The notes: generated by a model from the letters alone, not told the origin. A stretch of DNA of 64,000 nt from an uncultured delta proteobacterium (GCA_963745035.1 CAVUVW010000021.1:386045-450044); one strand, 5' to 3'; numbered from the stretch's first letter, positions 60,571 through 61,586 are shown. Numbers and translations: made by a program.

Positions 60571-61586
60571 ATGGCCGAGATATTTGTCAGTTATGCTTCC
60601 GCAGACCGCGAGCGAGCGCAGGCGCTTGCCGCTGCGTTGAGCGCGCGCGGCTGGTCCGTCTGGTGGGACCGTAAAATACCGCTCGGAAAATCCTATGATG
60701 AAGTCATCGAAAAAGCGCTGGCGCAAGCCAAGTGCGTGATCGTGCTTTGGTCGGCGGTTTCCGTCGCATCGGAATGGGTACGCAACGAAGCATCCGAAGG
60801 CAAACGGCGTGAGATCCTGGTGCCAGTGTTTATTGATGGCGTGGATGCACCGCTGGCGTTTCGCTTGCTGAACGGCGCGAATCTGATTGATTGGCAGACA
60901 GATATTGCGAATCAGGAATTCGACAAGCTCGTGGAGCGGGTCACGGAACTGCTCGGCCAGAGCTCTGCCGCGGCGACGCCATCGTCGTTCGTCAACACTC
61001 GCGTGCCGCCATATCAGCCGAGCAGAGAATTTGTCGCAAAGTTTTTCAAGTCTCGCCTGGTTCGGGGCGGATTGGCCACGTCATTTGTCGCGCTGCTCGC
61101 AGTCGGCTTTCTCCTGAAGGGGCGTGAGCCGGAACTTGAAAAGCCGGCGGAGGAGCAATCCAATTCGACGCCCGCCGGCCCTGAAGAGCCTGAGAGCCGG
61201 GTGGTTCGGATCTCGAAAAAAGCATCAAAGACCTGTCCAAGATATTTGGCGGGGCAGTCCCGGCAACATCCATGGCCAAAGGATTTCACGTGCCGGATCT
61301 CGGAGTGCGCATAGCCTACATCACTCCGGAGCAGAGCGCATCGACTCTGGGTGCGCTGCCACCGGGCGCGGTGGTGATGGAGGTGGAAAGCGGCCGCGCG
61401 GTGGCGAAGGCGGGGATCCACGTCGGCGATGTCATGGTCGCGATCGGCGGCAAGAAGATCGCGAGTGAAAACGATTTGCGCCAGGCTATTTTCAAGATCG
61501 GCCCGGGCAAGACGGCATATTCCTACCGGCGCGGTGGTGAAACCAAAACAGTTACGATCGAGTGCGCGAAGTGCGAAGCCCAATAA
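60571..61586 (+). CDS. TIR domain - transmembrane helix - PDZ domain protein (frameshift near 61195; alternatively two genes 60571-61314 and 61272-61586)
   Basis: [57 protein letters not shown]...GAVVMEV...AGIHVGDV. Confidence 0.82.

Follow-up and report, generated by a model that had tools for sequence, protein, structure and literature searches.

The stretch of DNA considered here, called the window below, is a 64,000-nucleotide sequence from an uncultured delta proteobacterium (GCA_963745035.1 CAVUVW010000021.1:386045-450044), and all positions given without further label are those of the window. It contains a locus at which a TIR domain, a membrane helix and a PDZ domain follow one another on the plus strand, and which may encode a single-pass receptor that couples a PDZ sensor outside the cytoplasmic membrane to a TIR enzyme inside the cell. 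In the window, this locus is read in two frames. An open reading frame (ORF) at 60571..61314 (+; 247 amino acids) encodes a TIR_2 domain, a hydrophobic helix and a Pro/Glu linker; the match to Pfam TIR_2 (PF13676) covers residues 4–120 (E 8.8e-24, 84.8 bits, with a gathering cut-off of 28) and includes the motif SEWVRNEA (residues 67–74), in which E73 is encoded by 60787–60789; the hydrophobic stretch itself spans residues 166–182. The second frame, −1 relative to the TIR ORF, is open from 61194 to 61586 (+; 130 amino acids), has its first ATG at 61272, matches Pfam PDZ_2 (PF13180; E 3.1e-13, 50.3 bits, cut-off 27) and ends in ...ECAKCEAQ. The ORFs and the Pfam matches thus place all the elements listed in a preliminary description of this DNA (TIR, WVxxE glutamate, helix, Pro/Glu linker, PDZ and CAKC) where that description had put them. 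The best homologue of the TIR ORF, P0001, is 338 amino acids long and 98% identical to it, and serves as the reference in the following list of features.

60571..61191 (+): gene part 1, frame 1 (TIR, membrane helix, Pro/Glu linker), colinear with P0001 residues 1–207 at 98% identity
60580..60930 (+): TIR domain, residues 4–120 (Pfam TIR_2; closest fold AbTir, 7uxu)
60787..60789 (+): codon of E73 in W69-x-x-x-E73, the putative catalytic residue (conservation; alignment to the W..E of AbTir and BtTir)
61060..61116 (+): single predicted transmembrane helix, about residues 164–182 (Kyte-Doolittle scan of homologues; AlphaFold2 helix 163–183; lysine-plus-arginine bias to the TIR side)
61117..61191 (+): Pro/Glu-rich linker, weakly conserved (mean pairwise identity 0.18; predicted local distance difference test, pLDDT, <50)
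61191/61192 (+): frameshift site, one base absent (comparison with P0001; five of five covering contigs longer by one base)
61194..61586 (+): gene part 2, frame 3 (pre-PDZ helix, PDZ, CxxC, stop), an open frame with 57–80% identity to intact same-genus genes
61293..61562 (+): PDZ domain, like PDZ1 of HtrA/DegP (Pfam PDZ_2; NCBIfam degP_htrA_DO; PDB and Foldseek matches)
61293-61307 (+): PDLGV carboxylate-binding loop of the PDZ domain (P242, G245 and R247 invariant)
61563..61574 (+): C-terminal CxxC (CAKC), found in 20 of 21 PDZ-type proteins and invariant among 19 full-length proteins
61724..62011 (+): zf_Tbcl gene, encoding a small treble-clef zinc finger, the downstream neighbour (Pfam zf_Tbcl, E 7.4e-13)

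The preliminary description had proposed that a single indel near 61195 separates the two parts of one gene. Such an indel is indeed there: compared with P0001, a single base is absent from the window between 61191 and 61192 (between cct and gagag), so that frame 1 reads ...PAGPEEP up to the break and frame 3 continues from it, and the TGA at 61191–61193 is due to the loss of this base. All five Logan contigs that cover the site, from four runs and three studies, have an extra base after 61191, which is A in four of them and G in one. For the interval 61185–61205, on which that description had laid weight, the frame is therefore restored in five of five contigs, which are 95–99% like the window and represent related populations rather than the source genome; no run with a sequence identical to the window was found. 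The related contigs also contain one extra base each at 61652 and at 61682, in intergenic DNA downstream of the gene.

The homologues point the same way. A protein search with the TIR ORF returned 654 proteins at E<=0.001, and among the 120 best homologues, in a search that covered lengths of 135–433 amino acids, 111 are single proteins of 315–351 amino acids with both TIR_2 and PDZ_2; the other nine are TIR-only entries of 143–295 amino acids, several of which are probably fragments. An intact frame of 335–364 amino acids is present in nine of the 24 same-genus genomes (G005, G006, G008, G011, G012, G015, G016, G020 and G024), or in eight without G005, which is unpublished; the gene occurs in four of the eight same-genus genomes that are at least 95% complete. 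Beyond a generic PDZ match, nothing was found in 16 genomes of the order's two other families. The TIR-PDZ fusion is thus real in nature, and the two frames belong to one gene, as had been proposed.

The break in the TIR-PDZ gene has company. An enolase/mandelate-racemase-superfamily gene at 57406–58507 (+), which is a single ORF of 363–409 amino acids in seven relatives, lies in two frames with the break at about 57692–57699, in GGGCCCGGGCGGG, and this is probably an assembly indel. On the minus strand, a gene for about 200 amino acids (56663–57266, −) is likewise in two frames when compared with four of four relatives, and its break at about 57033–57040 adjoins CAAAGAAAATC, an A-rich run. 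With three conserved genes frameshifted inside 4.2 kb, an assembly error is probable, and the break in the TIR-PDZ gene is likely to be a consensus indel artefact of long-read assembly. In another metagenome-assembled genome (MAG), the TIR-PDZ gene (L031 8001–8873) is broken in its TIR part, where the frames change near 8171–8180, which again suggests assembly indels in long-read MAGs. On balance, we read the locus in the window as encoding one type II single-pass membrane protein of about 338 amino acids, split here by the missing base.

The two domains are far better conserved than what lies between them. Across the 19 full-length proteins aligned in A1, E73 is invariant, as are W69, W108, long stretches of the TIR domain and, in the PDZ part, P242, G245, R247, C332 and C335, and the PDLGxR loop of the PDZ domain is nearly so; E73 is also conserved in at least 90% of the sequences in the larger alignments of 79 (A2) and 144 (A4). 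Mean pairwise identity is 0.78 in the TIR domain, 0.68 in the PDZ domain and 0.60 in the helix before it, then falls to 0.34 in the membrane helix and to 0.18–0.19 in the two linkers. This regional contrast indicates that the TIR and PDZ domains are under strong purifying selection and that the linkers are mere spacers. Across phyla, the TIR domain retains 50–59% identity.

An AlphaFold2 model of P0001, made with the alignment of 19 proteins, has a mean pLDDT of 67 and a predicted template-modelling score (pTM) of 0.41. The TIR domain (residues 1–133) is modelled confidently, with pLDDT blocks mostly of 78–91 and one of 56, and so is the PDZ domain (residues 236–335; blocks mostly of 71–88 and one of 63). 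In a Foldseek comparison with the PDB, the nearest structure to the TIR domain is AbTir with 3AD (7uxu), with a TM-score of 0.75 on the target and a root-mean-square deviation of 2.6, followed by the SPARTA TIR-APAZ protein, SARM1, BtTir and BtpA. HMMER alignments to AbTir, BtTir, TcpB and PdTIR put W69 and E73 on their W-x-x-x-E motif, the glutamate of which we take to be the catalytic residue of NAD+-cleaving TIR enzymes (NADases). Since the TIR domain of the window has both this glutamate and an AbTir-like fold, it looks like an NADase as far as sequence and model can tell. According to PMC11350192, mutation of conserved residues in the NADase active site of the TIR abolished defence in 12 systems.

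The nearest folds to the PDZ domain are the PDZ domains of DegQ, DegP, HtrA and MamP. The best NCBIfam model for it is degP_htrA_DO (TIGR02037), matched at model positions 236–328 of 434 with 50.7 bits (cut-off 416), so only the PDZ part of an HtrA/DegS/DegP protease is present, and there is no trypsin-like protease domain. As a domain it is of the HtrA type, with PDZ_2 above its cut-off and the carboxylate-binding loop intact. In 20 of 21 PDZ-type proteins, acidobacterial and betaproteobacterial ones included, a CxxC immediately succeeds the last PDZ strand; in the 21st, the region is cut by the end of the contig. A haem-binding role for this motif was rejected, as no histidine follows the second cysteine (no CxxCH). 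Three betaproteobacterial TIR-helix-PDZ proteins of 552–570 amino acids (L022 8001–9656, L025 8001–9710 and L027 8001–9695) have an extra conserved domain of about 210 amino acids after the CxxC, for which no Pfam match was found. A complex prediction with two copies of the outer part (residues 205–338 of the alignment) scored 0.00, which has no bearing on whether the receptor self-associates.

The preliminary description had considered a single protein; the PDZ domain is, beyond this, just one among many outer domains that occur on the same TIR-helix module. When species-representative genomes were searched for two peptide patterns of the TIR domain, 595 stretches came up, and 547 of them proved to be relatives. 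The proteins of the best 79 loci all begin with M-x-D/E-I-F-I-S-Y and all contain TIR_2. After the helix they have PDZ_2 (21), FGE-sulfatase (13), CarboxypepD_reg (3), DUF4493 (3), Sel1 (2) and, once each, PASTA, TonB_C, Lcl_C, DNase_II, WD40, PPC and SWIB, and the remainder have no Pfam match there. A HMMER search of 1.84 billion cluster representatives (clusters defined at 50% identity) gave 30,995 matches at E<=0.001, 12,951 at <=1e-10 and 1,760 at <=1e-30. Among the best 150 representatives, 107 have an N-terminal TIR domain and at least 250 amino acids, and a hydrophobic helix occurs in 85 of these 107, its median start being residue 170. In 144 representatives (the best 150 minus P0261–P0266), Pfam finds TIR_2 in 138, PDZ_2 in 20 (a share inflated by the presence of PDZ in the query), FGE-sulfatase in 9, Sel1 in 8, PASTA in 5, and WD40, Laminin_G_3, Lcl_C and TonB_C in 2 each.

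There is, then, a large class of proteins with the same TIR-plus-helix module and interchangeable outer binding domains, and the window gene has its characteristic layout of an N-terminal TIR domain, a helix at about 150–200 and a C-terminal domain. The same genome encodes two more of them: one of 366 amino acids (L090 778–1878, −, contig C13), in which the TIR-helix module is joined to a weak Sad1_UNC-like beta-sandwich, and one of 507 amino acids (L091 352–1875, −, contig C15), in which Big_2 repeats and a C-terminal helical part follow it. Full-length genes of the PDZ type occur in MAGs labelled Binatia, Deltaproteobacteria, Chloroflexota, Verrucomicrobiia, Thermodesulfobacteriota, Acidoferrum, Vicinamibacterales, Thiobacillaceae/beta-proteobacterium and cyanobacterium, and the ESM Atlas has a 69-member PDZ+TIR cluster that is commonest in Binatota. 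The class is common in poorly studied soil phyla such as Binatia and Acidobacteriota.

The topology can be approached through the relatives. No signal peptide was found ahead of the TIR domain, and a single hydrophobic 19-mer follows it in 66 of the 79 relatives. In these 66 proteins, the 15 flanking residues contain on average 3.6 lysines plus arginines towards the TIR domain versus 1.9 away from it; the flank next to the TIR is the richer one in 47, equal in 13 and the poorer one in 6 (13, 5 and 3, respectively, in the PDZ subset of 21). This bias, the outer domains of the sister proteins, which are mostly of envelope type (among them PASTA, TonB_C, FGE-sulfatase, CarboxypepD_reg, PPC and Big_2), and a cysteine pair that would fit an oxidising compartment suggest that the TIR is inside and the PDZ outside, that is, an N-in/C-out protein with a cytoplasmic TIR domain and a PDZ domain beyond the cytoplasmic membrane. 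The charge bias (47 of 66 versus 6) and the typically extracytoplasmic sister domains thus lend indirect support to the arrangement put forward in the preliminary description.

How might such a protein work? We propose that the window gene encodes a stand-alone type II receptor whose PDZ domain detects C-termini exposed in the envelope and thereby activates a TIR NADase in the cytoplasm, a reading to which we give a probability of roughly 0.55. It starts from the domains, their fusion, the conservation of the catalytic-type glutamate and of the PDZ loop, and the absence of a partner gene. The receptor would consist of a cytoplasmic TIR domain, one helix, a flexible linker and an outer part made of a short helix, the PDZ domain and the CxxC. 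The groove of the PDZ domain would bind C-terminal peptides exposed in the envelope. The PDZ domain of DegS senses the C-termini of unassembled outer-membrane proteins, and, by analogy, the ligands here could be envelope proteins, mislocalised or unfolded, that arise when phage, toxins or stress damage the envelope. Binding would alter the self-association of the receptor, the cytoplasmic TIR domains would pair through their BB-loops and cleave NAD+, and the output would be either NAD+ depletion, leading to growth arrest or death, or a signal derived from ADP-ribose. The strong conservation of the PDZ domain points to a ligand that is itself conserved and probably stems from the cell's own proteins, serving as a danger signal like that of DegS; a phage protein, evolving fast, would fit less well. 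As for the physiological role of such a receptor, abortive defence is a tentative suggestion, and stress signalling or dormancy a somewhat weaker one.

The genes around the locus say little of defence. Twelve of 22 loci (L010–L018, L020, L030 and L031) share the neighbourhood of the window whatever their label, in the order enolase-superfamily gene, cupin gene, (NMT1-type binding protein, MOSC), TIR-PDZ, zf_Tbcl, (YidB, DUF1648), Tag, where the genes in brackets are present only sometimes; the other ten (L019 and L021–L029) have no neighbour in common with the window. The neighbourhood is shared, too, by all seven same-genus loci L002–L008, as might be expected of kin; L002 belongs to the unpublished G005. 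The zf_Tbcl gene lies 137 bp downstream of the TIR-PDZ gene in the window and is downstream of it in 8 of the 22 loci; it was rejected as a partner, since it is kept in two genomes without the TIR-PDZ gene (G014 and G021). An FKBP gene, directly upstream of the TIR-PDZ gene in seven relatives, was rejected too, as the window lacks it and G021, which has no TIR-PDZ gene, contains it. In genomes without the TIR-PDZ gene, the slot is differently filled: between MOSC and zf_Tbcl, G021 has the FKBP gene and G014 a gap of about 630 bp, and in G023 the binding protein is followed by DUF1648. Consequently, TIR-PDZ is a single-gene presence/absence variant in a housekeeping region. In G007, an unrelated block follows MOSC (L094 2920–6961), with several multi-pass membrane proteins and a 598-amino-acid Ala/Glu/Arg-rich coiled protein.

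Clustering the neighbours of the 79 loci gave no partner family common across the class; what recurs is single-lineage synteny, extra FGE-sulfatase proteins, a cytochrome c protein, a lipase and a histidine kinase. With no shared partner in the 79 loci and only fragments matched by PADLOC, the idea of a defence island was rejected. A scan of 60300–62200 for promoters and terminators found no promoter-like sites and two terminator-like ones, on the minus strand only and not above shuffles. In the RNA runs X15–X20, just 5–14% of the sampled words were present, which gives no evidence of expression.

Several of these observations weigh against the receptor proposal. Thirteen of the 79 relatives in the wider class have no detectable helix, and in the model the helix 163–183 is of low confidence, with pLDDT below 50 for the helix and the linkers, which are disordered. 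The slot is syntenic, chromosomal and housekeeping rather than part of a defence island, which weakens a classical anti-phage reading; so does the lack of copies on mobile elements, as none of 22 matches in plasmid records covers 80% of the protein and no match was found in phage records. PADLOC found partial TIR-domain matches only, the best being ThsB at E 8.9e-6, and its SAVED_TIR model was matched in the TIR part alone. The preliminary description had gone as far as an envelope-sensing defence or signalling system and had suggested looking for defence islands around the homologues: neither the 22 nor the 79 loci revealed any, and with neither a conserved partner nor plasmid or phage copies the defence part of the claim was not supported. 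The proposal would also be affected if the frameshift were genuine in the strain, the gene then being a pseudogene or giving a TIR-helix product that is cut short and lacks the sensor, with a PDZ fragment made separately at most. The window sequence itself carries the shift, the site is not a homopolymer, the frame-restoring contigs are 95–99% alike rather than identical, so that a true frameshift in the strain is conceivable, and no run of identical sequence was found; moreover, the gene is dispensable in the genus, where it is present in 9 of 24 other genomes and in half of the eight most complete. The three frameshifts in 4.2 kb, two of them in homopolymer-rich sequence, look instead like assembly noise, the rest of the gene is undamaged and 98% identical to an intact homologue, and all five related contigs are intact, so we regard a genuine frameshift as unlikely. 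That the two parts are separate genes, one for a TIR-helix protein and one for a small PDZ protein, either secreted or cytoplasmic, is very improbable. There is an ATG at 61272 from which the latter could start, but direct inspection of the sequence found no GGAG-like Shine-Dalgarno motif upstream of it, as had been noted before, and no signal peptide was found at this ATG. The residues that frame 3 encodes upstream of the ATG are kept in all full-length homologues, and a stand-alone PDZ protein of this type occurs in none of the 120 best homologues (135–433 amino acids searched); three short PDZ-only proteins of 109–172 amino acids are listed among the cluster representatives and may be fragments. 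Homologue lengths, same-genus frames, conservation in the alignment of full-length proteins and the contigs all contradict such a separation.

Given one gene, its two domains could still act in other ways. The TIR domain might be non-enzymatic, an adaptor as in animal Toll-like receptors (TLRs) that, once a ligand has bound outside, recruits other TIR proteins or a cytoplasmic partner through TIR-TIR contact. Its unusual conservation (50–59% identity across phyla, 0.78 within the full-length alignment) would fit a conserved partner, and the TIR module recurs in two other proteins of the genome; yet the glutamate of W-x-x-x-E is kept in at least 90% of the 79 and of the 144 relatives, the nearest structures are all NAD+-cleaving TIRs, and there is no conserved partner gene nearby, all of which leaves an adaptor role improbable. 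Only slightly better placed is the idea that the PDZ domain is a tether that binds the C-terminus of one fixed protein or complex in the envelope and so anchors a TIR whose regulation is constitutive, or that the CxxC is a redox or metal sensor and the signal not a peptide. PDZ conservation of 0.68 would suit one fixed partner, the CxxC of 20 out of 21 proteins has no role in the canonical PDZ fold, and the fold matches include MamP, a redox protein with a PDZ domain. The lectin-like, PASTA, Sel1 and Ig-like outer domains of the sister proteins fit a ligand-sensing class better, and the CxxCH motif of haem binding is missing; we therefore consider this a rather unlikely alternative to a peptide-sensing receptor.

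A literature search found no published TIR-PDZ family, nor one with a TIR, a transmembrane (TM) helix and an outer domain, although supplementary architecture tables could list such fusions. Within the accessible text of each, a TIR survey (PMC7075850) leaves PDZ unmentioned and a microbial PDZ survey (PMC6411480) leaves TIR unmentioned, and in PMC8195603 the lectin domains FGS and NPCBM are regarded as sensors that act inside the cell with TIR effectors. Databases name the homologues just "TIR domain/PDZ domain" or "TIR domain-containing protein". The earlier opinion that this is not a described system is in line with this search. To our knowledge, the bacterial TIR systems characterised so far all sense intracellular events (phage proteins, nucleic acids or second messengers). 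The architecture and its sister class would represent a novel form of sensor-coupled TIR enzyme. It is conceivable, though the idea is speculative, that they form a large, undescribed bacterial family of TLR-style receptors, in which a TIR enzyme module is connected to interchangeable outer sensors via one helix.

If so, the outer domains would set the input, with PDZ responding to peptides, PASTA to cell-wall fragments, and FGE-sulfatase, lectin-like and Ig-like domains to glycans or proteins, and events outside the cytoplasmic membrane would be turned directly into NAD+-derived signals or NAD+ depletion. This would be outside-in TIR signalling in prokaryotes, a new input route that couples the state of the envelope to NAD+ metabolism, and a possible evolutionary precedent for the layout of the TLR and interleukin-1 receptors (IL-1R). 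TIR-PDZ would offer a simple one-gene system in which to study TIR activation transmitted across a membrane.

Among known proteins, the NAD+ hydrolases/cyclases AbTir and BtTir (7uxu, 7uwg, 8g83 and 7uxr) share with the window protein the fold, the FxSY start, the W(Y/W)D BB-loop and W-x-x-x-E, at an identity of about 21–24%; they are soluble, with a coiled coil or no extra domains, whereas the window protein is predicted to be membrane-anchored with an outer PDZ domain. Thoeris ThsB and the E. coli TIR systems of PMC11350192 have the active-site glutamate in common with it, and some of these systems are single genes, one of them with a TM segment. The text available from that study describes no extracytoplasmic sensor domain, and TLR-like membrane features seem, according to it, absent from bacterial TIR systems. 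The window gene has no partner and lies in no defence island: its neighbours are MOSC, zf_Tbcl, YidB, DUF1648 and Tag, with no adjacent ThsA (SIR2/Macro-SLOG) as in Thoeris, and the neighbourhood contains no cyclase as in CBASS or Pycsar, of which only the TIR part of SAVED_TIR is matched. The GAP1-N2 GTPase conflict systems are similar in that a TM helix links a signalling domain in the cytoplasm to a PDZ domain outside; in PMC7159879, their C-terminal TM segment with an extracellular PDZ or peptidoglycan-binding domain is predicted to contact the cell wall or outside ligands. They differ in that a GTPase acts there in a multi-gene system, whereas the window gene is a stand-alone TIR. DegS, DegP, DegQ and HtrA have the same type of PDZ domain; the window protein lacks their protease domain, would have a cytoplasmic TIR output instead and has gained a terminal CxxC.

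A layout like that proposed here is found in animal Toll-like and IL-1 receptors, in which an outer binding domain, a single helix and, in the cytoplasm, a TIR domain are combined and, as PMC7075850 describes, outer domains are swapped on one TIR. These receptors are type I proteins with a leucine-rich-repeat or immunoglobulin-like (Ig) ectodomain and a C-terminal TIR with Box 2 (RDxxPG) and Box 3 (FW), and the window protein falls outside their family, being of predicted type II topology, with an N-terminal TIR domain, a PDZ ectodomain and a TIR of the bacterial enzyme kind rather than a Box 2/Box 3 adaptor. What the two have in common is the layout alone, and no homology beyond the TIR fold is evident. 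Receptor Ser/Thr kinases such as PknB-PASTA begin with a cytoplasmic kinase, cross the membrane with one TM helix and end in an outer sensor that varies. The TIR module, too, carries PASTA, FGE-sulfatase, Sel1 and WD40 domains; the two classes differ in the catalytic domain, a kinase in one and a TIR in the other.

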